From the NCBI GenBank assembly GCA_964596355.1, contig CAZQTD010000005.1, positions 1-63,114 on the forward strand: 63,114 bases of DNA, given 5' to 3'. The stretch is from an uncultured Gammaproteobacteria bacterium. GTDB taxonomy: Bacteria > Patescibacteriota > Microgenomatia > UBA10105 > UBA927. Positions within the stretch are counted from its first letter, which is position 1, and every line of letters starts with the position of its first letter. The notes below the pieces were generated by a model that was given only the letters and a program-made list of their open reading frames with translations, did not search any database and was not told the origin of the DNA. The position numbers and the translations under genes were made by a program. This document shows, in pieces, positions 1-29,446 of this stretch.

Positions 1-184
1 GTCTGATTCAAGTAATTATCTCAGACAACACTCGCACTATACGGGGTATGGGTCATACGATAACGCTGCCGACGAGGAGTATGGCAATAATTCCATACGG
101 AGCCGAAAGTAAACGCTTCATGCACTCCGTATTATATCGTATACTCATGGCATATGGCAGTATGTATACGATAAGAGGATATGT

Positions 185-1870
185 ATGAATAAATGGTGGG
201 TTATTTGCGCCCTCTGTGCATCACTTCTGACAAGTGTTGTTCTGTATGGAAACACGATCCGCGGCGAGTTTGTTTTTGACGATGAATACTTTACTGCATG
301 GGAGGAATTACGCACCCCGCAAAGCCTGACGAATATTTGGCTCAAACCCCTCACGAATAACCGTGATTTTTCCCTTGTTGAAACGTACCGTCCGTTTGTC
401 GTGTTTACCATGGCGCTCAATTTCATCCTTTTCGGTGAGGCAACGACGTCATTTCATGTCGTTAATATCATTCTCAACGGCCTTGTCGGTTTTCTTGTAT
501 TTTATTGTGTCTATCTTCTTTTTCGAAAATTGGTCGTTGCGGCATGTACCGCGCTACTTTTTATGTTTTTCCCCATACACACAGAGGCGGTTGCGTTTAT
601 TAAAGCGCGTGAGGAGGCCCTCGGATCCGGATTTATGCTCCTTTCGTGGATTGCCTTTTTGAATGCAACAGGGAAAACGCATATCCGGTGGAGGTATGTG
701 CTTCTCTCGGTCGTGTTTTTTTTCTTCGGGTGTCTGTCGAAGGAGTTTTTACTTATATTTCCAATAGTATATTTTGGGGTGTATTGGCTACATAAAAAAC
801 CGCGGATCATCGTAACTGTTCAATTAGCTGTCCCTTTCATCATTGTCGGGATCATCTATGTAGCTATGTGGTATACGAGTCTCGGCGGTAAGCTGCCGTT
901 TGAAAATCTTCATACGTATCCGGTGAATCCGATCGCACATGTCGAGCTTCCTGTCAGAGTCTGGACTGCATGTGCTATCGCGTTCACCTATATCTGGAAG
1001 ACATTCGTTCCCATCGGGCTTACGGCAACGTATCGATATAACCATTTTCCGTTGGTCGAACGTCTTTTTTCATACAAATCATTCGCAGGGCTCCTGTTTC
1101 TTATCTGTCTCGGTGTGCCGTTTGTTGTCAAAAAATTTCGTACGTCGGCTCTTGCCGTAGGTGCGCTCATATTTTTAGTTTCCTATTTTCCTTTTTCAAA
1201 ATTTGTGTTTACTGGAGGAGAATTCATGGCCGAACGGTGGATGTACTTCCCATCTATGGGACTTGCGCTTATAGCGGCAGTGGGAATAGCCGGAGCATTA
1301 CGACGATATAAAATTATTACTATGATACTTTTTGCAACCGTACTTGTTGTATATGCCATTACAACGGTTCAAAGAAACCGTGTGTGGTTGTCGCCCGAGT
1401 CGTTGTATTCAAGCATGACCCATGATGCGCCCAACAGCGTATTTGGATACGTATGGCTGTCACGGTATTATCTCGTTGCGCGTCGATTTGATGATGCTAA
1501 GCATAATATCCTGCGGGCGGTACGCATTTATCCGGGCCACCATCAGGTGCAGGCCGCCTATGCAGCGGTACTTGCCCATGATAAGCAATATGAACGGGCA
1601 GAACGTGCGATCATCAGAGCAATTAATCTGAAACCCGAAACAAGCTCATATTATTTCTGGGCGTATATCATGACGAAAATGGGCAAATATGACGAAAGCC
1701 AGCAGGTGATTGACGCATATCTTGGGCCCCGGCGCAGTTTATCAGAGGTAAAATTTTTAACCGCCGTCAACTATTTTCGTATGGGACAGGTAGAAAAAGC
1801 ACGGGAGTATTTTGACTGGAATTCCAAGTTGTCAGAGGAGGAGAAAATCCGTGCGATTAATGAATTCTAA
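185..1870 (+). CDS. TMTC-like GT-C membrane glycosyltransferase with C-terminal TPR repeats (putative protein O-mannosyltransferase)
   Basis: N-terminal FVFDD motif, YRP motif, FPIHTEAV, 'MAERWMYFPS' (TMTC/DUF1736-like), many TM segments, TPR-like C-terminus. Confidence 0.8.
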   Translation: MNKWWVICALCASLLTSVVLYGNTIRGEFVFDDEYFTAWEELRTPQSLTNIWLKPLTNNRDFSLVETYRPFVVFTMALNFILFGEATTSFHVVNIILNGLVGFLVFYCVYLLFRKLVVAACTALLFMFFPIHTEAVAFIKAREEALGSGFMLLSWIAFLNATGKTHIRWRYVLLSVVFFFFGCLSKEFLLIFPIVYFGVYWLHKKPRIIVTVQLAVPFIIVGIIYVAMWYTSLGGKLPFENLHTYPVNPIAHVELPVRVWTACAIAFTYIWKTFVPIGLTATYRYNHFPLVERLFSYKSFAGLLFLICLGVPFVVKKFRTSALAVGALIFLVSYFPFSKFVFTGGEFMAERWMYFPSMGLALIAAVGIAGALRRYKIITMILFATVLVVYAITTVQRNRVWLSPESLYSSMTHDAPNSVFGYVWLSRYYLVARRFDDAKHNILRAVRIYPGHHQVQAAYAAVLAHDKQYERAERAIIRAINLKPETSSYYFWAYIMTKMGKYDESQQVIDAYLGPRRSLSEVKFLTAVNYFRMGQVEKAREYFDWNSKLSEEEKIRAINEF

Positions 1871-3329
1871 GGTCGTTGCTGTTGTTTTTTTTGCCGCTTA
1901 CCTTGTTGTCGGGTTGAGTATCTTCCGCGATTACGGTCTCTCATGGGACGAGCCGATTTCACGTTTAAACGGCATCAAAGCGTACAGGTACGTGTTTGAA
2001 GGTGACAAATCGCTGTTCCGGTATCGGGATCGCTATTACGGTACGGCATTCGAGTTGCCGTTGTACGCACTGGAGAAATGGTCGGGGATTACTGATCCGG
2101 AGAGGATCTTTTTCTTTCGTCACGCCATCACGTTTCTGTTGTTTTATATCAGTGCAGTTATCTTTCATCGTCTTTGTGCAGAAACATTTCATAGCCATTG
2201 GCGGGGCTTACTTGGTGTACTTCTTTATATTCTGCACCCTCGGATTTTTGCCGATAGTTTTTACAATTCCAAAGATATCGCGTTTTCGTCTGCATTTGTC
2301 ATCGCCGTCTACACCGGGTTGCGGTTTGTCCGGAAGCCGACCGTGCTTCGGGCTGTGGTTTTTGCTGTAGCAGCAAGTTTTGCGACGGATATTCGCATTG
2401 CCGGAGGACTGGTGTATCTTCTTATACTTCCGCAGATACTCTGGTCTTATCGGAAAAAACTGAACAATCTGTTCAAGCCGCTGGCCGTTTGTATCGGAGC
2501 GTCAGTCGGTTTTACCTATGCATTCTGGCCTGTTTTGTGGAGCAATCCTTTGGATCGTTTTTTTGAGGCGCTGCGGTATATGAGTTCATTTTCTCAATAC
2601 GAGAACGGCATGTTGTATATGGGGAAACAGACGTGGTCGCATACGGCGCCCTGGCATTATTTATTTGTCTGGATAGGGATTACCACACCGGTCGCACTCC
2701 TTGCATTATCCGTTCTTGGTTTTGTCAGGATACTTATGAAACGGAATGCGTGGGGATTGATGATGGCGGCATGGGCCCTTGTTCCTCTCGTTGCTGTACT
2801 CATTACCCGCCCGGCTTTATATGACGGATGGCGGCAATTTTATTTCATCTATCCGGCTATCGTAGGGCTTGCACTTGAGGGACTTACCTATCTGTGGACG
2901 AAAGGGATACGGGTGCGCGGTGTCGCAGTCAGTGCGCTTGCGCTGACAGGAATACTGACCGTATCGTTCATGGTGCGCAATCATCCGTACCAGAACGTAT
3001 ATTTTAATGAGTTCGTAGGGGGCATCCGAGGCGCACAGCACCGTTTTGATCTTGACTATTGGGGACTTTCGTTTAAGCGGGGGTTGCAATATATCGCAAA
3101 AACAGATTCAGATTATCAGATTCCGGTATTTTTTGCGTTTGGTATCAAAGCACAGGCTGATTTCCTTCCGTTCGAAGATCGCCGTTTTATGCCGTTATCC
3201 GATGCGAACAAGGCCAGATATATTCTTTCAAATTTTCGGTGGCAGATGAATACACCCCCATATCCGGAAATCTATCATGTTGCGATTGATGGAGTGAAGA
3301 TTATGAGTGTATTCCAAGCTCCGGATTGA
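1860..3329 (+). CDS. GT-C (PMT_2/ArnT-like) membrane glycosyltransferase
   Basis: DYGLSWDEP motif after first TM, HPRIFADSFYNSKD, multiple TMs; ATG at 1860 overlaps upstream stop. Confidence 0.8.
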   Translation: MNSKVVAVVFFAAYLVVGLSIFRDYGLSWDEPISRLNGIKAYRYVFEGDKSLFRYRDRYYGTAFELPLYALEKWSGITDPERIFFFRHAITFLLFYISAVIFHRLCAETFHSHWRGLLGVLLYILHPRIFADSFYNSKDIAFSSAFVIAVYTGLRFVRKPTVLRAVVFAVAASFATDIRIAGGLVYLLILPQILWSYRKKLNNLFKPLAVCIGASVGFTYAFWPVLWSNPLDRFFEALRYMSSFSQYENGMLYMGKQTWSHTAPWHYLFVWIGITTPVALLALSVLGFVRILMKRNAWGLMMAAWALVPLVAVLITRPALYDGWRQFYFIYPAIVGLALEGLTYLWTKGIRVRGVAVSALALTGILTVSFMVRNHPYQNVYFNEFVGGIRGAQHRFDLDYWGLSFKRGLQYIAKTDSDYQIPVFFAFGIKAQADFLPFEDRRFMPLSDANKARYILSNFRWQMNTPPYPEIYHVAIDGVKIMSVFQAPD

Positions 3330-3383
3330 AATGCACGAGCGATTGGTTGATGCGTGCGTGGAGAACGTTTATACTGTAAAGTA

Positions 3384-5615
3384 ATGCCCACACGCTTATT
3401 TGTCATTGGGAGTTTTACTCTATTTGGTATGGGAATTATACGGATATTTTTTCCGTATTTTTCATCCCCAACATACGCAGCCGTATCTTCTTGTACCACG
3501 TCAGTGAGTCCGACAAGCATGACACAGTCTTCAACTGGCATATTGGCATTTCGTGTTGAAAATACATCTTCCGAAACAATTCTTTGGGTAAAAGTATCCC
3601 GTCCGGATGATAGTTTTACGGTTAACGGTGCTTCTGCAGGCGGGTGGAATGCATCCAATACGGAAGAAGCAGGAACATTTAGCGGAGGATCCTCTATAGC
3701 CCCGTCAGGATCGGCATATTTTTCACTGAACGTTACTGCGGGTGGCAGTGTAGGAGATCCGGGAAGTTGGACCGTAGAAGTATCGGATGACAGCGGTGGT
3801 AGCTCTCCAACGACATGCACGGGCGACACAAGTGTGTCTATCACGGAAGGCAGCGGCGGGGGAGACACAACGGCACCTACAATTTCTGACATCGTTGTTT
3901 CCGACATTTCCGATACGCAGGCGAAAATTACCTGGACCACGGATGAGTCCGGAACAACAGTCGTTGATTACGGCACAACTGATGACTACGGATCCACGGC
4001 AACCGGTGACTCGGGAACATCGCATAGCGTGACAATTTCAAGTCTCACGGCAAATACGACGTATCACTATAATGTGAAAAGCGCGGATAGCGCAGGAAAT
4101 ACCGGTGAATCCGGAGATAATACGTTTGTGACAGCCAAACAGGGGACGACGACGACCACGACGGTAACCGGAACGACGCGCACAATTACCGCTACCGGCA
4201 CGCCGACGCCGGTTCCTGATAGGACGCCGCCCAAGACCACGATTGTTACCACGCTCAATAAACCCTTCACCGAGGCGCCGACCATAGAAGGCAAGGCAAC
4301 CGATCCAAGCGGCGTGGCTAAACTGGAATACTCGATTGATGACGGCAGGAATTTTCTTCCGATTGACGAGGTCGAAGGATTAGGGAAGGCGTCAGCGACG
4401 TTTACGTTTACCCCTTTGGGACTTTTGGACGATAACTACATCGTAAAAATCCGCGCAACAGACAGCAAAGGCAACACAGGGACAAGCAAGGGTGTCACGA
4501 TGGTGGTTGACCGCCTGCCGCCGTTAGTGGGCGGCGTGGTCTTGACGCTCGGGCCGCAGGTTATCGAACCAACGAAAGACGGAGCGCTGATCTTGCTTCC
4601 ACATGTTTCATACAACCTGACACTTTCTGCTGTTGGAGGCCCTACAGACATTCGTCTCGTAGGTAACCTAGGTAACCTCGGTACCCTACGCAAAAACCTC
4701 GACAATGGCCTCTGGAGTACGACGATCCGGTTTGATACGTCCGGGATGTACACGCTCTGGACACACGCAATTGATGGAGCGGGAAATATAAAAGACCATG
4801 CGTTTCCGTCATTCACTGTTGTTGAGCCCGGACGGGTATTTGGGGGGTCTGTCGCGGTGACCAATGGAACGCTCGTTGTGTATGTGCTTCATGATGATAC
4901 CAAGCGGTTTATCCTGTGGGATGGAGAAGCCTATGGGCAAAACAATCCGCTCCCATTATCCCATGACGGGTCATATGCATTGTATTTGCCTGCCGGCACG
5001 TATTATCTTGAAGTACGCGCGCCGGGGTATACGCGTGCGATTTCCCAAATTTTTTGGTTAGATAAAGGCGCACCAATTGTTGAACCAATTTACCTGACGC
5101 GAAAGCGCGCACTTCGTTTGGGACCGTTTCTTATTCCTCTGCCTGATTTCCGGCAGACAACCATACGATTGACGCTCACGACTCCGTCTATGGACGCGCC
5201 AGCAAGCAGCGTCCGCGATGTGACTGGCGAAGAACTGCCGTATTTTCGGCTTCCTTCTGATGATACGATGATCGCAAGTACGTCGTTGCGCGGCAAACCA
5301 ACAATTATTACCTTCCTTAATTCTTGGTTGCCCCATACGCCGGAACAGCTGGCTGTCTTGCAGGAGCTTGCCCAAAAAAAGGAAATTCATGTGGTAAGCA
5401 TTTTTCCACAAGAAACCGCGGCGGCAGTTTCCATTTTTCGAAAACGGGGGGATTACGCAATCCCGATCATCGCGGATCCCGACGGCACGCTCATAGAAGC
5501 ACTTGGCCTGACATCCTTTCCTGCTCACGTGTTTGTCAGCCGTAAAGGGATTATCGAGAGAGTGGCGACGGGCTTGCTAACAAAGGAGGAGTTGTTGGAT
5601 AACGTGTTAAAATAG
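3384..5615 (+). CDS. Secreted/surface protein: Ig-like and FN3 (purple acid phosphatase N-terminal-like) domains, Thr-rich linker, carboxypeptidase-regulatory-like segment, C-terminal redoxin-fold domain lacking CxxC
   Basis: Signal/TM N-terminus; 'AKITWTTDE...VDYGTT...HSVTISSLTANTTYHYNVKSAD' FN3 motif; 'D.TPP' Ig repeats; C-terminal 'LRGKPTIITFLNSW...DPDG...SFPAHVFV' AhpC/TSA-like. Confidence 0.7.
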   Translation: MPTRLFVIGSFTLFGMGIIRIFFPYFSSPTYAAVSSCTTSVSPTSMTQSSTGILAFRVENTSSETILWVKVSRPDDSFTVNGASAGGWNASNTEEAGTFSGGSSIAPSGSAYFSLNVTAGGSVGDPGSWTVEVSDDSGGSSPTTCTGDTSVSITEGSGGGDTTAPTISDIVVSDISDTQAKITWTTDESGTTVVDYGTTDDYGSTATGDSGTSHSVTISSLTANTTYHYNVKSADSAGNTGESGDNTFVTAKQGTTTTTTVTGTTRTITATGTPTPVPDRTPPKTTIVTTLNKPFTEAPTIEGKATDPSGVAKLEYSIDDGRNFLPIDEVEGLGKASATFTFTPLGLLDDNYIVKIRATDSKGNTGTSKGVTMVVDRLPPLVGGVVLTLGPQVIEPTKDGALILLPHVSYNLTLSAVGGPTDIRLVGNLGNLGTLRKNLDNGLWSTTIRFDTSGMYTLWTHAIDGAGNIKDHAFPSFTVVEPGRVFGGSVAVTNGTLVVYVLHDDTKRFILWDGEAYGQNNPLPLSHDGSYALYLPAGTYYLEVRAPGYTRAISQIFWLDKGAPIVEPIYLTRKRALRLGPFLIPLPDFRQTTIRLTLTTPSMDAPASSVRDVTGEELPYFRLPSDDTMIASTSLRGKPTIITFLNSWLPHTPEQLAVLQELAQKKEIHVVSIFPQETAAAVSIFRKRGDYAIPIIADPDGTLIEALGLTSFPAHVFVSRKGIIERVATGLLTKEELLDNVLK

Positions 5616-23360: not shown

Positions 23361-23385
23361 GGCAATTAGCGAACAAAAGATGAAT

Positions 23386-23586
23386 CTACATTTGCCCTTT
23401 CTGTTGCAATCCCAACAGCCACAAAACAGCTTCTTTTTTGTAGCGCCTGTCGCCGCGTGAGTTGATGCGGATGGCAGGCAGTTTGCCGCGTTTGCCCCAG
23501 CGTTTGATTGTCAAGGGGCTGACGCGCAGTATTTTGGCAACCTCTCGAACGGTAAGTAAATCTGGCCAGTCATCTCCGAGTGACAT
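23386..23586 (-). CDS. Small excisionase-like helix-turn-helix DNA-binding protein
   Basis: 'LLTVREVAKILRVSPLTIKRWGKRGKLPAIRINSRGDRRY'; TTGACA-17-TACTGT upstream. Confidence 0.88.
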   Translation of the reverse strand: MSLGDDWPDLLTVREVAKILRVSPLTIKRWGKRGKLPAIRINSRGDRRYKKEAVLWLLGLQQKGQM

Positions 23587-23944
23587 ACGGGACTCCTTTA
23601 CAGCGAGCAGGCGAACGAAGTACGAAACAATACGATCGTTTGTGTTCATAACAGTACAACGCCGGTCAAACATTGTCAAGAGGTATCAAATGTGTTCAGG
23701 AGATGTGGATATGGTGTTGATGCGGGAATACGTTGTGCGACATGTCATTTCGGGAAATATAGTATGGTGGTACGCATACTATTATCCTGTTTTTTGTCCC
23801 ATAGCATATCTTTTTGGCGCTTACTATTCGTGAGTGCGCAACGAAAAATAATTCCATAGCATTCATCGTATGTGAGTGCAAATGCGAAACAGAATTTGAC
23901 AATCTCAAAAAGTCTGGATCCATTTTTTGTGGTATCATAATGCC

Positions 23945-24148
23945 ATGTGCATTGCGCAGTACAAAAAAGTCAAAATGGCCCAAGGAAACACCGCGTTGTT
24001 GACTGACGGCAGAACAGTTCGTCTGGCTCCTTCCATGTCTGTGCAATCTGGAGATTGGGTGGAAGTGTATGCAGATATTGCCCTTGCCAAAGTTAATTCC
24101 GATGAGGTACAAAAGAAGAAGGATCTACAAGGAGGAAATGCATCATGA
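23945..24148 (+). CDS. HypC/HupF-like hydrogenase chaperone
   Basis: N-terminal MC, 'GDWVEVYADIAL' resembling GDYVLVHAGFA; next to hydrogenase genes. Confidence 0.6.
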   Translation: MCIAQYKKVKMAQGNTALLTDGRTVRLAPSMSVQSGDWVEVYADIALAKVNSDEVQKKKDLQGGNAS

Positions 24149-25035
24149 AAAAAGGAATACAATTAAGTTTTGTAACTGCCATCATTTCCGGTTTTTCCGT
24201 ATGGACCAACAGCATCTTCGTGTCAAAGGCAGATCCGCTGGTGTTTGCGCTTGCGCGAAACGCTCTTGTTGCACTGCTTTTAACTGTGGTGCTTGTATTG
24301 ATCAATCAGCATAAAAACCTCAAGCGGCTCTCGACAAGACAGTGGCTGCAGCTCATTGGCATCGGAGCAATCGGTGGCGGGCTGCCGTTTGCGCTGTTTT
24401 TCACTGGGCTTAAAGAAATCGGAGCAGTACACGGCAACCTTATTCATAAAACGCTGTTTCTGTGGGTGGCGTTGTTGGCTGTGCCGATACTCAAAGAAAA
24501 ACTTACCAAACTTCAGATTATCGGATACGGTATTGTGCTCGTCGGCACAATTGGCATTGGAGGCGTCTCTGCCCACGTTTTGGCGGCAAAAGGGTCGTTG
24601 TTGGTTTTGGCCGCAACACTTCTGTGGGCCGCGGAAAATGTCCTTGCGAAAGTAACGCTCAAAGACGTATCTTCACCAGTTGTTGCGTGGGGACGGATGA
24701 TATTTGGACTGCCATGGTTGCTCGTGGCAGTAATTGTGCTGGGGAAGGCGGGCGTCCTTTTTCAGTCAACGACGTACGCAGTTGCGCCGATGGCCGTAAG
24801 CAGTCTCTTTCTTGTCGGGTACGTAACGACGTGGTACGCGGCGCTGTCCAAAGCGCCCGCGACACTTGTCTCGTCTGTGCTCGTTATTGCACCGGCAATT
24901 ACGGTTATGTTGGGAAGTGCGGTTTTTGCACGCGGCATGACGCAGGAACAGATTGTACGCTACGGCATAACTGCCGTTGGTATTCTTTTCATTATCCGCA
25001 AAAGCGTCCCGCGCGGTGCCGTGGTGGCACGGTAA
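24145..25035 (+). CDS. EamA/DMT family transporter
   Basis: Ten TM segments in two repeats; 'LFFTGL', 'ILKEKL'. Confidence 0.88.
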   Translation: MKKGIQLSFVTAIISGFSVWTNSIFVSKADPLVFALARNALVALLLTVVLVLINQHKNLKRLSTRQWLQLIGIGAIGGGLPFALFFTGLKEIGAVHGNLIHKTLFLWVALLAVPILKEKLTKLQIIGYGIVLVGTIGIGGVSAHVLAAKGSLLVLAATLLWAAENVLAKVTLKDVSSPVVAWGRMIFGLPWLLVAVIVLGKAGVLFQSTTYAVAPMAVSSLFLVGYVTTWYAALSKAPATLVSSVLVIAPAITVMLGSAVFARGMTQEQIVRYGITAVGILFIIRKSVPRGAVVAR

Positions 25036-25039
25036 ATGT

Positions 25040-25834
25040 ATGCCCGGAATGAGCAATACTGATTCTGGACTTCTCCTGTGCGCCCGCTATGCGTTTGCTC
25101 CAAACCACTATCACTTTTGCGGGCCGGAAAAACAGCGTGATGTCTTTGAATACGTCAACAAAAACGTCAGCGACCGGGGACTAGCGGACATTCTTCATCG
25201 TTTTGAGACGCTGTATCCCTACCTTGTGTTGATTGCGTCGCAAAACGGTATGAAAGACCCCTTTGATCGACGGGTGGTAGAGGCGTATTGGTTGGGCAAC
25301 GACCTTTTGAAAACCATCAAAGCAAAAGCATTCGGCGATCATCTTTCGGATGCGCTGCAACTAAAAAAGAAGCTTCCGGCACGCCTTTTTTCTCCTATGA
25401 TCAATCACGTTGTCTCCGGCGTGCCTCACCATGTCTTTCATGTGATGAACATATTTCCTCGCACTGGACACGCCATGGCAAACCATACGCTCCATACGAT
25501 GGATGAATGCCGGATTAGCTGGGGGCGCGTTGACAATACGGTGAATGCGGTCAATCGGACACCTGTGACTAGTGACAAAATAATCGGGAACCAGTACGTG
25601 ATACAAACGAGGCCTTTAGAATACAAACACGGAAACCTCGTGCTTGGAGATCCGATACGCAAAGTCGTCACCAGCATAGCCGTGGTCCCAAAAATCGGCG
25701 ACTGGGTGAGCGTGCACTGGGGATTTATCTGCGATGTATTGTCGAAACAGCGCATTCGTCAGTTAGAACGGTACACGCGGTACGCCATAGCGCATGCAAA
25801 TAAAGCTATGCGAAACGAAAGAGTTGCGCCGTAG
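25040..25834 (+). CDS. DUF6390-like protein (hydrogenase-associated), C-terminal HypC-like 'GDWVSVHWG'
   Basis: 'ARYAFAPNHYHFCGP', 'YPYL..IA', 'VVEAYWLGN', 'PHH.FHV', 'MDECRISWG'. Confidence 0.75.
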   Translation: MPGMSNTDSGLLLCARYAFAPNHYHFCGPEKQRDVFEYVNKNVSDRGLADILHRFETLYPYLVLIASQNGMKDPFDRRVVEAYWLGNDLLKTIKAKAFGDHLSDALQLKKKLPARLFSPMINHVVSGVPHHVFHVMNIFPRTGHAMANHTLHTMDECRISWGRVDNTVNAVNRTPVTSDKIIGNQYVIQTRPLEYKHGNLVLGDPIRKVVTSIAVVPKIGDWVSVHWGFICDVLSKQRIRQLERYTRYAIAHANKAMRNERVAP

Positions 25835-25859
25835 AAACACAAAGCACGGTATTCAGCAC

Positions 25860-26237
25860 ATGAACGTATACGTCGTCGGAAATTCAATCGTGAAAAATGA
25901 CAGGTTGCCAATCGCGCTTATTCCTCGGCTTCGCAGGGCCTTTCCTTGCATGAATGTTACAGCGGTTGATCCGAATGAACAATTTATTCCCGAGGAGGAC
26001 TCCGTCATTATTGACACGGTGCACGGAATTACCGATGTTCAGGTGTTTGATTCTCTCGATGCGTTTGAACAGGTGAGGAGCGTAACTCCCCATGATTATG
26101 ATTTGGGGTTTCACCTGCGGTTACTGCAGAAACTCCGGAAAATCTCCCGCGTCACTATCGTCGGTGTGCCGCCCAAACGCACACCGCTTCTTCTCACTAA
26201 GCTCATCTCCGTCCTTACTACTATTACATCGATGTAA
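25860..26237 (+). CDS. Hydrogenase maturation protease-like protein (HycI/HyaD fold)
   Basis: 'VVGNSIVKND', 'VIIDTVHG', 'HDYDLG' resemble GN..DDG / IIVDA / STH motifs. Confidence 0.6.
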   Translation: MNVYVVGNSIVKNDRLPIALIPRLRRAFPCMNVTAVDPNEQFIPEEDSVIIDTVHGITDVQVFDSLDAFEQVRSVTPHDYDLGFHLRLLQKLRKISRVTIVGVPPKRTPLLLTKLISVLTTITSM

Positions 26238-26246
26238 TAGCAGTAG

Positions 26247-26432
26247 TCAGGTGTTGTGTTTGGATGAGGATTTTGTGCGGTTTGTGTTGTTTGTGCCGTT
26301 CGTGCCGATGGTAATTTTAAGGTTGAGCTCTTTTTTCATGAGCTTAAGGACAATGAAACTTAAAAGCCCAACGAGTGCGGCCACCAGCGCCGCGATGATG
26401 CCCATGAACATGAGGATGATTGCTTGAACCAT
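26247..26432 (-). CDS. Small single-TM hypothetical protein
   Basis: Hydrophobic N-terminal half; TATAAT 6 nt upstream of ATG. Confidence 0.5.
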   Translation of the reverse strand: MVQAIILMFMGIIAALVAALVGLLSFIVLKLMKKELNLKITIGTNGTNNTNRTKSSSKHNT

Positions 26433-26444
26433 AGGCGCATTATA

Positions 26445-27734
26445 CTATTTCCACGCAATCTTCAAAAAGTGGGTGGCACAGCTCATGCATGGGTCGTAGG
26501 CGCGGATAATTTTTTGTATTTCTGTCGTGAGCACATCTTTGGATTGATCGAGGTGTGTGGATACGTAGTCGCGGATAGATCGCTCAATACCGATTTGATT
26601 TTGGCCCGTGGGGACGATAACCCTTGATTTGACCACGGCGCCCTCGGAGCTCATGTCCACTTTATGAAACAGGGTCCCGCGCGGCGCCTCTATGATGCCA
26701 ATGCCCGCGGCTTGTCTGGGGGCGAATGATACAGGTTTTTCTTCCTGTCCCTGATACTGATTGATTAAATCGATACTTGCGTCTACTGCGTGGAGCATTT
26801 CTATGGCTTGCGCGAGGTTATTATGAAAAATGTTGTTCGATGGAAACTGCGCAAGCGCCTTGGCGGCATCCGCTTTTGTTTTAGGATGGAGAGCGTCGCT
26901 ATTGAGGTTCAGGCGGGCAAGCGCGCCCACCATGTGAATGTGATCGTCAAACAGGTAGCCGGTCGCTTGAGAGTAGGGAATTTCCCGGCGTTTGAGGCGC
27001 GACTCAAACTCTTCTGGAGCGATCGTGGCATTGTCGCTGGTTTTTATCGTTCCTTCGAGGAATGAAAACTCCGCGTCAACCAGCGCGAGAAACTTGAGGT
27101 CTTGCATAAGGTTAAACGGACACTTCAAAAAAACGTCGATCAGCTGAAGGATTCGCGGCCGAACCTCGGTTAACACCGGAATCAACGCGCGCAGATCTTC
27201 TTTTTTCGGCAGTATGGTGAATCCGCCGACAGTCACGTGCGGCGCGTGCACGCTCCTGCCGCCGGATGCAATGCTTACTTTATTCCCTGCTTCTTTAACG
27301 GCAAAACAGTCGTGGACTAACGCGTGTTCTTCGGGACTGTTATCATCAAACGCGAGAATCGACTCACGATTATAAAGGTCGGGCAGGGCAAATACGTACA
27401 GATGGAGTCCGTGATCTCGGATGATGAGTCCGTAGTTGAGGAGCTTGCGAAGCACTGTTGTTTGCTTAGAAACCTCAAGTCCCAGTCCGCTTTCTACCGC
27501 CTTGAGGCTTGCCAGAAGATGCGCGTTACTGCACGTGCCGCAGATGCGGGAAAGCAAATGGGGAAGACTTGTTATCCTTTTGCCGCGCACCGCCTGTTCA
27601 AAGAATCTGCGCATTTCTGCAATGCCGAACTTGCACTCGGCAAGAACGCCCTCGCGGATTTTTATGTCCAAGCGCGCCGCACCTTCGATTTTGGTGATTT
27701 CTTCAAGCGACAGATCGAGATTGGCGGTATGCAT
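26445..27734 (-). CDS. NiFe hydrogenase large subunit, group 3b-like
   Basis: KIEG, L1 RICGTC, EAPRG, L2 DPCMSCATH plus short C-terminal tail FLKIAWK. Confidence 0.92.
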   Translation of the reverse strand: MHTANLDLSLEEITKIEGAARLDIKIREGVLAECKFGIAEMRRFFEQAVRGKRITSLPHLLSRICGTCSNAHLLASLKAVESGLGLEVSKQTTVLRKLLNYGLIIRDHGLHLYVFALPDLYNRESILAFDDNSPEEHALVHDCFAVKEAGNKVSIASGGRSVHAPHVTVGGFTILPKKEDLRALIPVLTEVRPRILQLIDVFLKCPFNLMQDLKFLALVDAEFSFLEGTIKTSDNATIAPEEFESRLKRREIPYSQATGYLFDDHIHMVGALARLNLNSDALHPKTKADAAKALAQFPSNNIFHNNLAQAIEMLHAVDASIDLINQYQGQEEKPVSFAPRQAAGIGIIEAPRGTLFHKVDMSSEGAVVKSRVIVPTGQNQIGIERSIRDYVSTHLDQSKDVLTTEIQKIIRAYDPCMSCATHFLKIAWK

Positions 27735-27739
27735 GTATT

Positions 27740-27810
27740 ACTTCATTGACTCATTGCTTCATTGGTTTCATTGCTTTAAGACAATGAAACAGTGGAACAG
27801 TGAAACCATC
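27740..27810. repeat. Octamer repeats in inverted blocks (TCATTGCT.. / CAATGAAA..)
   Basis: GTTTCATTG 27765-27773 pairs with CAATGAAAC 27782-27790, flanked by further octamer copies. Confidence 0.75.
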
Positions 27811-27820
27811 GGATGAGACT

Positions 27821-28306
27821 CTAGTCCCTGACGATCTTGAATTCTTTAAGATACCTGTCTAGCAATTCTAAAAACGGTTTCTCATTCATCGGACAGCCGT
27901 TGACTTCCGCATCCACTGTCACAATCTCACGGAGACATTTCACGGTGTCTGCCTGTTTGAAGCGAGCAAGAAGCGCCCTGATTTCCTCTTTGGTTGGTGC
28001 GTCAAAACGGTTCCGTTGCGCGCTTGGCAAACCCGTGCACGCGCACGCGCCGATAGCAACGAGCTTGGTGGAAAGCGAGCGGATTGTTTTGAGTTTTTCC
28101 GCGTGTTCATCTGAACAAATCGCTCCTTCGACAAAGGCCACATCCATGGGCTCCCATTTGTTGGTGTTCTGCAAAACCCGCGCGTGGACAAACTCAATAT
28201 TTTCTTTCCACTCCTTCCAGCGGGTATTCATAAGCTCCATGAAGATAATCGTGGAATCTTCACAACAGGTAAAGGTAAACCATCCGACGCGAAGCTTCTT
28301 TGCCAT
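27821..28306 (-). CDS. NiFe hydrogenase small subunit (NADH-ubiquinone oxidoreductase 20 kDa-like fold), short form
   Basis: TCCEDS, FVEGAI, VAIGACACTG, NGCPM. Confidence 0.9.
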   Translation of the reverse strand: MAKKLRVGWFTFTCCEDSTIIFMELMNTRWKEWKENIEFVHARVLQNTNKWEPMDVAFVEGAICSDEHAEKLKTIRSLSTKLVAIGACACTGLPSAQRNRFDAPTKEEIRALLARFKQADTVKCLREIVTVDAEVNGCPMNEKPFLELLDRYLKEFKIVRD

Positions 28307-28350
28307 ACACGTATTGTAACAAAAGTACCGGAGTTTATTAATCACGTATT

Positions 28351-28403: not shown

Positions 28404-28796
28404 TTATTTGAGTTCAACCTTTGCTCCTGCCGCCTCTAATTTCTTTTTCGCCTCTTCGGCAGTTTCTTTATTGACTGCGGTTAAAACTTCCTTTGGCGCA
28501 CTCTCCACGAGTGTTTTTGCCTCTTGAAGTCCCAACGTCGGGACCAGTTCACGAACTGCTTTAATCGCTCCTATTTTGTTTTCACCTATTCCTGCAAGGA
28601 CGACGTTGAATACTGTTTGTTCCTCTTTTGACTCGCCAGAGTTGGCATCGCCAGCGGCTGCGGCTTGGGCGGCCACTGCCACCGGAGCGGCGCTGACGCC
28701 AAACTTTTCTTCGAGCGCTTTGACAAGATCGGCAAGCTCAAGAACCGTCATCTCTTCAACTGCTTGTAAAATGTCATCTTTTGATAGTTTTGCCAT
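28404..28796 (-). CDS. rplL: 50S ribosomal protein L7/L12
   Basis: [37 protein letters not shown]. Confidence 0.97.
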
Positions 28797-28817
28797 ATAC
28801 ACCTCCCTTCAGTCGGT

Positions 28818-28921
28818 AAATCCTAAATTCCAAATTCTACATCCAAAATAAATTCAAATGCTCAAAATTCTAATTAGAAATTGAAACCTTGATAGTATTT
28901 TGGATTTTGAGTTTAGGATTT
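28818..28921. repeat. Heptamer repeat footprint with nested inverted repeats, overlapping rplJ 3' end
   Basis: AAATCCTAAA 28818-28827 / TTTAGGATTT 28912-28921; ATCCAAAATA 28841-28850 / TATTTTGGAT 28896-28905. Confidence 0.8.
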
Positions 28922-29446
28922 TGAATTTTTTATGCCATTAAGCGCCCATACGAGTCTATTGATATTCCAGCTTAATGCGTCGTGCAGTCTCTGGATTGGC
29001 GCGTTGAGGTTTGCAACAAATTTGGTCCGTAGGATATCGGCGGAGGGCAGTTGCGCCAGTCTGGCGACCTCTTGGTGATCTAGTGCGTTGCCGGAAAGGA
29101 AGCCGCCTTTAATGCTTCCCGCGCCTGCGCTGGCAAAAAACTTCATAAGCTCTTTAATCGGCGACACTTCATCCGCGTACGCAAACAGTGCAGCGCTTGA
29201 ATCGGAGAGAAATGTTTTGACAGCATCCGTATTGCTTTCTTCGCCGCGGGGCAGGCCGTCAAGCGATCGAAGCATGAGTCTGTTTTTAACAACGACGAAT
29301 TCTCCCTCAACCTTTTTAAGGAGCTTTCGGAGTTCTTCCAGCTGTTTGTGCTTCAGGCCTTTATAGTTAGCAAACACGATAGACTTTGCTTTTGCCACCT
29401 TATTTGCGAGTTTGGCAACAGTATCGATTTTTTTCTGTGTTGGCAT
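28913..29446 (-). CDS. rplJ: 50S ribosomal protein L10
   Basis: KK..V..L..K, YKGL, VVKNRL, KGGFL, LAQLPS. Confidence 0.95.
   Translation of the reverse strand: MPTQKKIDTVAKLANKVAKAKSIVFANYKGLKHKQLEELRKLLKKVEGEFVVVKNRLMLRSLDGLPRGEESNTDAVKTFLSDSSAALFAYADEVSPIKELMKFFASAGAGSIKGGFLSGNALDHQEVARLAQLPSADILRTKFVANLNAPIQRLHDALSWNINRLVWALNGIKNSKS

Follow-up and report, generated by a model that had tools for sequence, protein, structure and literature searches.

DUF6390 as a candidate core of HypD/E/F-independent maturation of a hyd2-type [NiFe]-hydrogenase in Patescibacteria

How can the active site of a [NiFe]-hydrogenase be assembled in a genome that lacks HypD, HypE, and HypF? In textbook [NiFe]-hydrogenase maturation HypC, HypD, HypE, and HypF are required for the Fe(CN)2CO unit, and no established exception to this requirement was found in the literature searched. 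The question is raised by a hydrogenase locus on contig CAZQTD010000005.1 of the patescibacterial assembly GCA_964596355.1, of which positions 1 to 63,114 were analysed (hereafter the window). The genome comprises 1.10 Mb in 27 contigs, with a completeness of 100 and a contamination of 0.35. All six genes of the locus were recovered where the initial annotation had placed them, between positions 23945 and 28306, and they form two converging operons. The plus-strand operon encodes, in this order, a short HypC-like protein (mini-HypC), an EamA permease, a protein of the family DUF6390, and a divergent HycI-type protease. Its genes are tightly spaced: the mini-HypC and EamA genes share an ATGA overlap preceded by an AGGAGG ribosome-binding site, and the EamA and DUF6390 genes overlap by 20 nt. 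The minus-strand operon consists of the gene for the small subunit followed by that for the [NiFe] large subunit. This layout is not due to chance, as the same arrangement was observed in 7 other loci of the Candidate Phyla Radiation (CPR). Across phyla, DUF6390 is strictly linked to hydrogenase genes, and it was not once found with HypD in the samples of Patescibacteria and Chloroflexota. The comparisons described below suggest that DUF6390 may be the core of a maturation route independent of HypD, HypE, and HypF, a reading to which we assign a probability of roughly 55%.

As predicted from its sequence, the enzyme is a hyd2-type cytosolic [NiFe]-hydrogenase with an intact Ni-Fe site and one Fe-S cluster in the small subunit. 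The large subunit (PF00374, 99.9 bits against a cut-off of 25.8) contains the motifs RICGTCSNAH (residue 63) and DPCMSCATH (towards the C-terminus), and thus all four metal cysteines. The PRG arginine motif typical of CN-binding sites is kept as well, and DPCMSCATH is followed by a tail of 7 residues, FLKIAWK. Its closest solved structures belong to group 3b, namely 5yxy of T. kodakarensis (E 1.4e-50) and the alpha subunit of sulfhydrogenase I (SH-I) of P. furiosus, and the alignment runs from end to end. The group 3b sulfhydrogenases (P. furiosus SH-I/II HydBGDA and T. kodakarensis Hyh; structures 5yxy and 9nez) are therefore the closest relatives of the large subunit and have the L1 and L2 motifs in common with it. 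In contrast to these tetrameric HydBGDA enzymes, the window genome encodes neither beta and gamma subunits nor the Hyp machinery. The scores for the NCBIfam HydA and ShyA equivalogs, 221.8 bits (cut-off 700) and 192 bits (cut-off 880), fall far below both thresholds.

The small subunit covers positions 4-154 of the 261-position model of the delta subunit HydD. Its N-terminal domain matches that of group 3b HydD, but the protein ends after the proximal [4Fe-4S] domain. Aligned with small subunits of 256-282 aa, it lacks the part of about 100 aa with 8 cysteines that bears the medial and distal clusters. The absence of the distal Fe-S domain, already noted in the initial annotation, is thus borne out and extends to the medial cluster. 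The first cluster motif is a tandem-cysteine TCCED, where relatives have CxGC. The small subunits of loci L013, L014, L016, and L110 likewise have a tandem CC with a downstream Ser or Asn (TCCEDS), and that of L027 has one of the two tandem cysteines only (SCSEDN). The tandem CC presumably resembles the tandem-cysteine motif of NuoB in complex I.

Two hydrogenase types of CPR bacteria have been named hyd1 and hyd2 (Jaffe et al., 2020, BMC Biol 18:69, PMC7304191). The small subunits of hyd2 are truncated to a mean of 164 aa, beta and gamma subunits are absent, and the function was called uncertain (Jaffe et al., 2020). The window enzyme is a member of this known clade because its small subunit has 161 aa, beta and gamma subunits are missing, and its clade support is 100. 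In a FastTree phylogeny of 47 large subunits, which does not include the sequences of Jaffe et al. (2020) themselves, the eight large subunits that accompany a short small subunit form one clade (support 100, branch 0.82), with the window sequence as its deepest member. Size, the missing subunits, and a hypC-like neighbour agree with the published description, and no structural difference from hyd2 was found; the minimal module itself has thus already been published. The word 'maturation' is absent from that study, and DUF6390, the permease, and the protease are not named in it (Jaffe et al., 2020). Within the clade, branch lengths range from 0.2 to 0.6, and the four metal cysteines, the tail, and the cysteines of the proximal cluster are conserved.

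The small subunit has no built-in electron-transfer partner subunits, and tblastn searches with HydB and HydG from related loci revealed no partner beside the hydrogenase or elsewhere in the genome. The sole match is an FNR-like gene on contig 1, which lies beside a thioredoxin-reductase-like gene and a gene for glutamate dehydrogenase. No second large subunit was found in the genome; a weak match at window positions 178-342 (E 0.082) is spurious and lies antisense to a real gene of 561 aa. No classical ferredoxin emerged from six-frame motif scans of the genome. A two-subunit 2-oxoacid:ferredoxin oxidoreductase is encoded on contig 2, and an enzyme of this type adjoins the hydrogenase in loci L014 and L027. 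The hydrogenase probably evolves H2 from low-potential electrons, which might be provided, for example, by the 2-oxoacid:ferredoxin oxidoreductase.

Six-frame family searches of the whole genome, in which the control genomes consistently gave the expected results, did not detect HypD, HypE, HypA, or HypB. HypF was not found in the genome either, where the searches returned only acylphosphatase and YrdC-type fragments, and HypC-like sequence is restricted to the locus described here. Likewise, no radical S-adenosylmethionine (SAM) enzyme with a BATS domain (PF06968), as in ThiH-, HydG-, and HydE-like proteins, was detected in the genome. The absence of hypA/B/D/E/F and of flavin or NAD(P) subunits, initially stated for the window, therefore holds for the whole genome. 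The suggestion that the rest of the system lies elsewhere has to be rejected: the genome is complete, and neither HypA/B/D/E/F nor beta and gamma subunits are encoded in it. Compared with the HypCDEF pathway of E. coli and T. kodakarensis, the end product and the order of events (iron unit, nickel, C-terminal clipping by a HycI-type protease) are presumed to be the same, whereas HypD/E/F and HypA/B were not found in the window genome, nor HypD/E/F in 37 of 50 genomes with DUF6390.

The distribution of DUF6390 is closely linked to that of hydrogenases. Among 301 Patescibacteria, 62 encode a large subunit, 17 encode HypD, and 27 encode DUF6390. All 27 fall within the 62 hydrogenase-bearing genomes; the 239 genomes that lack a large subunit all lack DUF6390 as well. 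HypD is present in 0/27 patescibacterial genomes with DUF6390 compared to 17/274 without it. The corresponding numbers for 201 Chloroflexota are 0/19 and 90/182, the 90 including two unpublished genomes, G523 and G388, that bear on no other result. In a set of 50 genomes with DUF6390, the same 13 possess HypD, HypE, and HypF (E 1e-120 to 1e-238), and all three are missing from the other 37. The latter group comprises every CPR genome, every Chloroflexota genome (up to 5.6 Mb), and the archaeon of the set. The 13 HypDEF-bearing genomes are labelled Actinomycetota or unclassified 'bacterium', with Hyp genes that are in many cases part of the DUF6390 locus or close to it. The co-occurrence of DUF6390 with an absence of hyp genes is thus found in two phyla without any overlap with HypD, and in 37 of the 50 genomes for all three proteins.

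The gene neighbourhood points in the same direction. Relatives of DUF6390 were taken from 80 species genomes labelled Patescibacteria, Chloroflexota, Actinomycetota, and, in one case, Thermoplasmata; the loci were annotated by our own open reading frame (ORF) caller, which takes the GC content of third codon positions (GC3) into account, and by Pfam. In about half of the loci (~40/80, from four phyla), both a large and a small subunit are encoded within 8 kb of DUF6390. Two layouts were distinguished in the CPR. The hyd2 layout, in which [hypC]-[eamA]-DUF6390-protease converge on the genes of the large and the short small subunit, is that of the window and of L010, L013, L014, L016-L018, and L027. 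Of the accessory genes, only those for DUF6390 and the protease are common to all eight of these loci. The hyd1 layout reads hydB-hydG-[hypC]-eamA-DUF6390-small subunit-large subunit-hypA(84 aa)-pgk. Large subunits of the hyd2 type (window, L013-L018, L027, and L110) carry a tail of 7-9 residues of the form FLK.xW and are accompanied by the divergent protease, without HypA. Those of the hyd1 type (L011, L012, L021, L052, L086, and L096-L109) end at the histidine of DPCxxCxxH, lack the protease, and are accompanied by a truncated HypA of 84-85 aa. The four cysteines are kept in all large subunits from HypDEF-less genomes.

DUF6390 itself is a clear member of PF19927 (184.4 bits against a cut-off of 25), and the match covers positions 3-242 of the 244-position profile. 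An AlphaFold model (predicted local distance difference test, pLDDT, 89) consists of a helical N-terminal domain (residues ~18-160) and a HypC-fold oligonucleotide/oligosaccharide-binding (OB) barrel (165-261). The best structural match of the barrel is HypC 2z1c_A, with a VIA-align Z-score of 5.3 and a root-mean-square deviation of 2.2 over 70/71 residues (model 165-261 on chain 2-72). This Z-score alone is modest, and the homology of the C-terminal domain to HypC rests on the sequence profile: hhalign against stand-alone HypC gives a probability of 95% (E 2e-8) and places C165 on Cys2 and H234 on His51 of HypC. A search of PDB sequences returned weak HypC matches only (E 0.39). In an alignment of 44 DUF6390 sequences, C165, H234, and H139 are invariant and C35, H142, C239, and R166 near-invariant. 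The equivalent of His51 is accordingly kept in all 44 sequences, and DUF6390 from HypDEF-bearing genomes has the same conserved residues. The conserved Cys and His residues and the HypC-like tail, which had been proposed from the single sequence, are hence confirmed by alignment, profile comparison, and structure match.

The C-terminal domain of DUF6390 thus shares the OB fold and the equivalents of Cys2 and His51 with HypC, HybG, and HupF (PF01455; 2z1c, 3vyr-3vyu, and 2ot2). In contrast to HypC, however, its cysteine is internal (165 of 272) and located behind a helical domain of 150 residues without known fold, and there is no HypD partner. Because of this internal position, C165 cannot be a free N-terminal cysteine as in HypC. 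Modelled alone (pLDDT 77), the helical domain did not resemble any known fold, the best Foldseek match having an E-value of 1.6 and the best VIA-align match a Z-score of 4.5 over 65 residues. It had no usable match in the ESM Atlas, and DUF6390 contains no radical-SAM motif. DUF6390 is very probably a hydrogenase maturation factor.

The mini-HypC shares the Met-Cys start of HypC, but differs from it by a sub-cut-off Pfam score (HupF_HypC, 25.2 bits against 28.5; TIGR00074, E 6e-4 and 19.7 against 48) and by a Tyr at the position of His51. In an alignment of HypC from 13 loci (A6), its sequence VEVYADIAL stands against V.VH.GFA in HypC from HypDEF-bearing genomes. The His51 equivalent is kept in 3/3 HypC from such genomes and is not kept in 7/10 from HypDEF-less or untested genomes, where it is replaced by Y, N, A, or E or shifted by one position. 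The permease matches PF00892 in two stretches (105.8 bits), and its NCBIfam matches are weak and sub-threshold, to drug/metabolite transporters (DMT) for amino acids and carboxylates. An ortholog of this permease is encoded directly upstream of DUF6390 in ~40/80 loci and in 0/13 loci from HypDEF-bearing genomes; counted by genome, EamA stands beside DUF6390 in 27/37 HypDEF-less compared to 0/13 HypDEF-bearing genomes. For the protease, which might also start at an in-frame ATG at 25794, neither the protein nor its profile gave a match in Pfam (including PF01750), NCBIfam, or PDB sequences. When an alignment of six CPR proteases was compared by hhalign with HycI from Chloroflexota and Actinomycetota loci, the probability was 85% (E 6e-6, 104 columns), and the invariant residues D14, D52, and H78 fell on the D/D/H metal-ligand positions of HycI. 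The protease is present only beside large subunits with a C-terminal tail.

In the maturation route that we propose, DUF6390 would serve as a carrier or scaffold for iron, the iron unit being bound by the HypC-like domain (C165, H234) together with C35, H139, H142, and C239. It might then dock on the large subunit in the manner of HypC and hand over the iron unit, whereupon nickel would enter without HypA and HypB. The protease would clip the 7-residue tail, and the small subunit could then bind. The permease, where present, might provide a small-molecule or metal input, and the mini-HypC, having lost His51, may merely keep the apo-subunit open. A broader version of this proposal, which we hold tentatively and at slightly below even odds, is that DUF6390 represents a HypD/E/F-independent way to build or replace Fe(CN)2CO in hundreds of Patescibacteria, Chloroflexota, and some archaea, with the helical domain acting as a scaffold or even performing ligand chemistry.

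Several observations weigh against DUF6390 as the core of such a route. We know of no chemistry for making CN or CO in this gene set, and no known fold or enzyme resembles the helical domain. The presence of DUF6390 alongside full HypCDEF in 13 genomes implies that it can work with the canonical route and is not simply a replacement. Of the 62 CPR genomes with a hydrogenase, 20 lack HypD as well as any recognisable DUF6390. A stand-alone HypC was not detected in five hyd2 genomes, nor did the permease query find an EamA ortholog in four sibling hyd2 genomes that carry DUF6390. Moreover, the comparison genomes are all metagenome-assembled, and the exclusivity counts overstate the statistical weight because related genomes are not independent, for which reason counts are given instead of a probability. 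The shared invariant residues in the 13 genomes, the 20 genomes with neither protein, and an N-terminal domain without recognisable catalytic fold would suit a lesser role: DUF6390, with or without EamA, may be only an accessory chaperone or a metal-supply and sensing pair that does not take the place of HypD/E/F, if the Fe ligands are made by unrecognised genes or the site is not canonical Fe(CN)2CO. Such a role deserves attention but is unlikely, as the sibling hyd2 genomes conserve no accessory genes other than those for DUF6390 and the protease, the occurrences of DUF6390 and HypD are mutually exclusive in the samples of two phyla, and the large subunit retains the four cysteines and the arginine motif expected of a CN-bearing site. 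In addition, a genome of 1.1 Mb leaves little room for a hidden pathway, and no HydG- or HydE-type enzyme is encoded in it. Another explanation would shift the weight to the permease. CPR bacteria are scavengers with minimal biosynthesis, and EamA might take up a ready-made precursor from a host or the environment, be it a ligand source (cyanide or thiocyanate, for instance), a metal chelate, or an iron complex, which DUF6390 would receive at the membrane. The position of eamA directly upstream of DUF6390, often overlapping it, and its restriction to HypDEF-less genomes in the counts given above are in line with import. This explanation is nevertheless quite improbable, considering that the four sibling genomes contain DUF6390 without an EamA ortholog recognised by this query, that the module also occurs in Chloroflexota with genomes of free-living size (3-5.6 Mb), and that NCBIfam offers no clue to a substrate; DMT transporters are not known to carry organometallic units. 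The initial annotation had proposed DUF6390 and EamA together as an alternative maturation or cofactor-import route. On comparative grounds, the DUF6390 part of this proposal is supported, since the protein is tied to hydrogenases, does not overlap with HypD in two phyla, and has the Cys and His residues of a HypC fold; the EamA import part is weaker.

Two further explanations would make an alternative route superfluous. If the hydrogenase-like pair were a relic or had a function other than H2 turnover, no cofactor assembly would be needed. Indeed, the activity of hyd2 enzymes is a prediction from their genes, the partner subunits are gone, and the function has been called uncertain (Jaffe et al., 2020). 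This is very improbable all the same, because the metal cysteines, the cleavable tail with its dedicated protease, and the cysteines of the proximal cluster are conserved across a deep clade, and the whole cassette is retained in genomes of 1 Mb that shed most non-essential genes. Finally, hypD, hypE, and hypF could exist but have been missed through incomplete assemblies or insufficient search sensitivity. The 27 contigs of the genome and the metagenome origin of the comparison genomes leave some scope for such losses, and the lack of a large subunit in two HypD-bearing CPR genomes indicates that gaps do occur. An artefact of this kind is hardly credible, however, given the completeness and low contamination of the window genome and the fact that the same searches recovered HypD/E/F in an all-or-none fashion in 13/50 genomes, in 90/201 Chloroflexota, and in all four hydrogenase-bearing controls. 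HypD was found in none of the 27 + 19 + 37 DUF6390 genomes, some of which are CPR assemblies of only 3-5 contigs or Chloroflexota whose loci lie on contigs of 2-3.4 Mb.

As an enzyme type, hyd2 is already known; neither the helper module nor the lack of HypDEF was encountered in the literature searched. No mention of DUF6390, or of hypD, hypE, or hypF in connection with Patescibacteria, was found there. If DUF6390 does provide a second route, ideas about the synthesis of this cofactor would have to be revised. Hydrogenase production in another host could then draw on a very small gene set, with two structural genes and two to four helpers, and CPR hydrogen metabolism, so far inferred from genes alone, would become testable. 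An enzyme that instead lacks the CN and CO ligands would be equally unexpected. The coordinates of the locus, and of genes in related loci that are discussed below, are listed in Table 1.

Table 1. Features of the hydrogenase locus (window positions) and of selected related loci (positions within the respective locus).
Feature	Positions	Strand	Evidence or remark
Mini-HypC, 67 aa	23945..24148	+	Pfam HupF_HypC E 1.8e-5, 25.2 bits
EamA/DMT permease, 296 aa	24145..25035	+	PF00892 E 2.8e-30, two EamA repeats
DUF6390, 272 aa (gene call P0007)	25016..25834	+	PF19927 E 3.3e-54
Divergent HycI/HybD-type endopeptidase, 125 aa	25860..26237	+	hhalign to HycI proteins
[NiFe] large subunit, 429 aa	26445..27734	-	PF00374 E 2e-28
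Truncated small subunit, 161 aa from Met14 of the ORF	27821..28306	-	PF01058 E 7e-16
Promoter-like site	28313..28341	-	TTAATA-17-TACAAT + TG extension, 9/12 matches, consensus match only
n11, locus L096	10398..11174	-	hyd1 layout
n11, loci L097, L099, L101			hyd1 layout
n11, locus L110	10007..10765	-	hyd2 layout
HypC-radical-SAM fusion, locus L102	5308..6609	+	
HypC-radical-SAM fusion, locus L109	9624..10874	-	
HypC-radical-SAM fusion and ThiH/HydG-like enzyme, locus L112	5306..6781; 3033..4466	-; -	

Some CPR loci without DUF6390 contain other proteins in its place. In five CPR loci, the place of DUF6390 between eamA and the hydrogenase or protease genes is taken by a conserved protein of 252-261 aa, here called n11. 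One of these loci is L110, which otherwise has the hyd2 layout. It could not be assigned to DUF6390 or to HypC, the hhalign comparisons (E 0.057 and 0.48, respectively) being not significant, and there was no Pfam match. A stretch reading VFHHFGV aligns with the His motif of HypC, and n11 may be a positional analogue of DUF6390. Another family that lacks both HypD and DUF6390 has HypC alone, next to a protein of 203-216 aa. In three CPR loci without HypD or DUF6390 (L102, L109, and L112), HypC is fused to a radical-SAM/BATS enzyme (HupF_HypC E 1e-19, Radical_SAM 9e-18, BATS 0.006), and L112 also encodes a second, ThiH/HydG-like enzyme with the motif CVNDCEYC. Like DUF6390, these HydE-like fusions are derived from HypC and stand beside [NiFe]-hydrogenases in the absence of HypD, but they are missing from the window genome, in which tblastn found no relatives of them.

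The surroundings of the locus contain few further features. The promoter-like site is located just upstream of the small-subunit start at 28306, between it and rplL (28404-28802). The genes rplJ-rplL (28404-29446, minus strand) lie directly upstream of the hydrogenase genes on the same strand, separated from them by a gap of 97 bases that includes this site; the usual occupant of the place after rplL is rpoB. Just downstream of the large subunit, an ORF of 61 codons (26247-26432, minus strand) would encode one hydrophobic helix and a tail rich in Asn, Thr, and Ser. It did not form a conserved cluster among the related loci and is possibly no gene at all. The ~580 bases upstream of the mini-HypC (23361-23944) contain no convincing gene, as the ORF translations are of low quality and without family match, and a TATCAT box is found only a few bases before the mini-HypC start. 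Five of the related loci (L010, L016, L017, L019, and L021), typical CPR hydrogenase loci from genomes of ~1 Mb, are titled 'uncultured Gammaproteobacteria' or 'Bdellovibrionales'. These record names look like mis-assignments, since the large subunits fall inside CPR clades.

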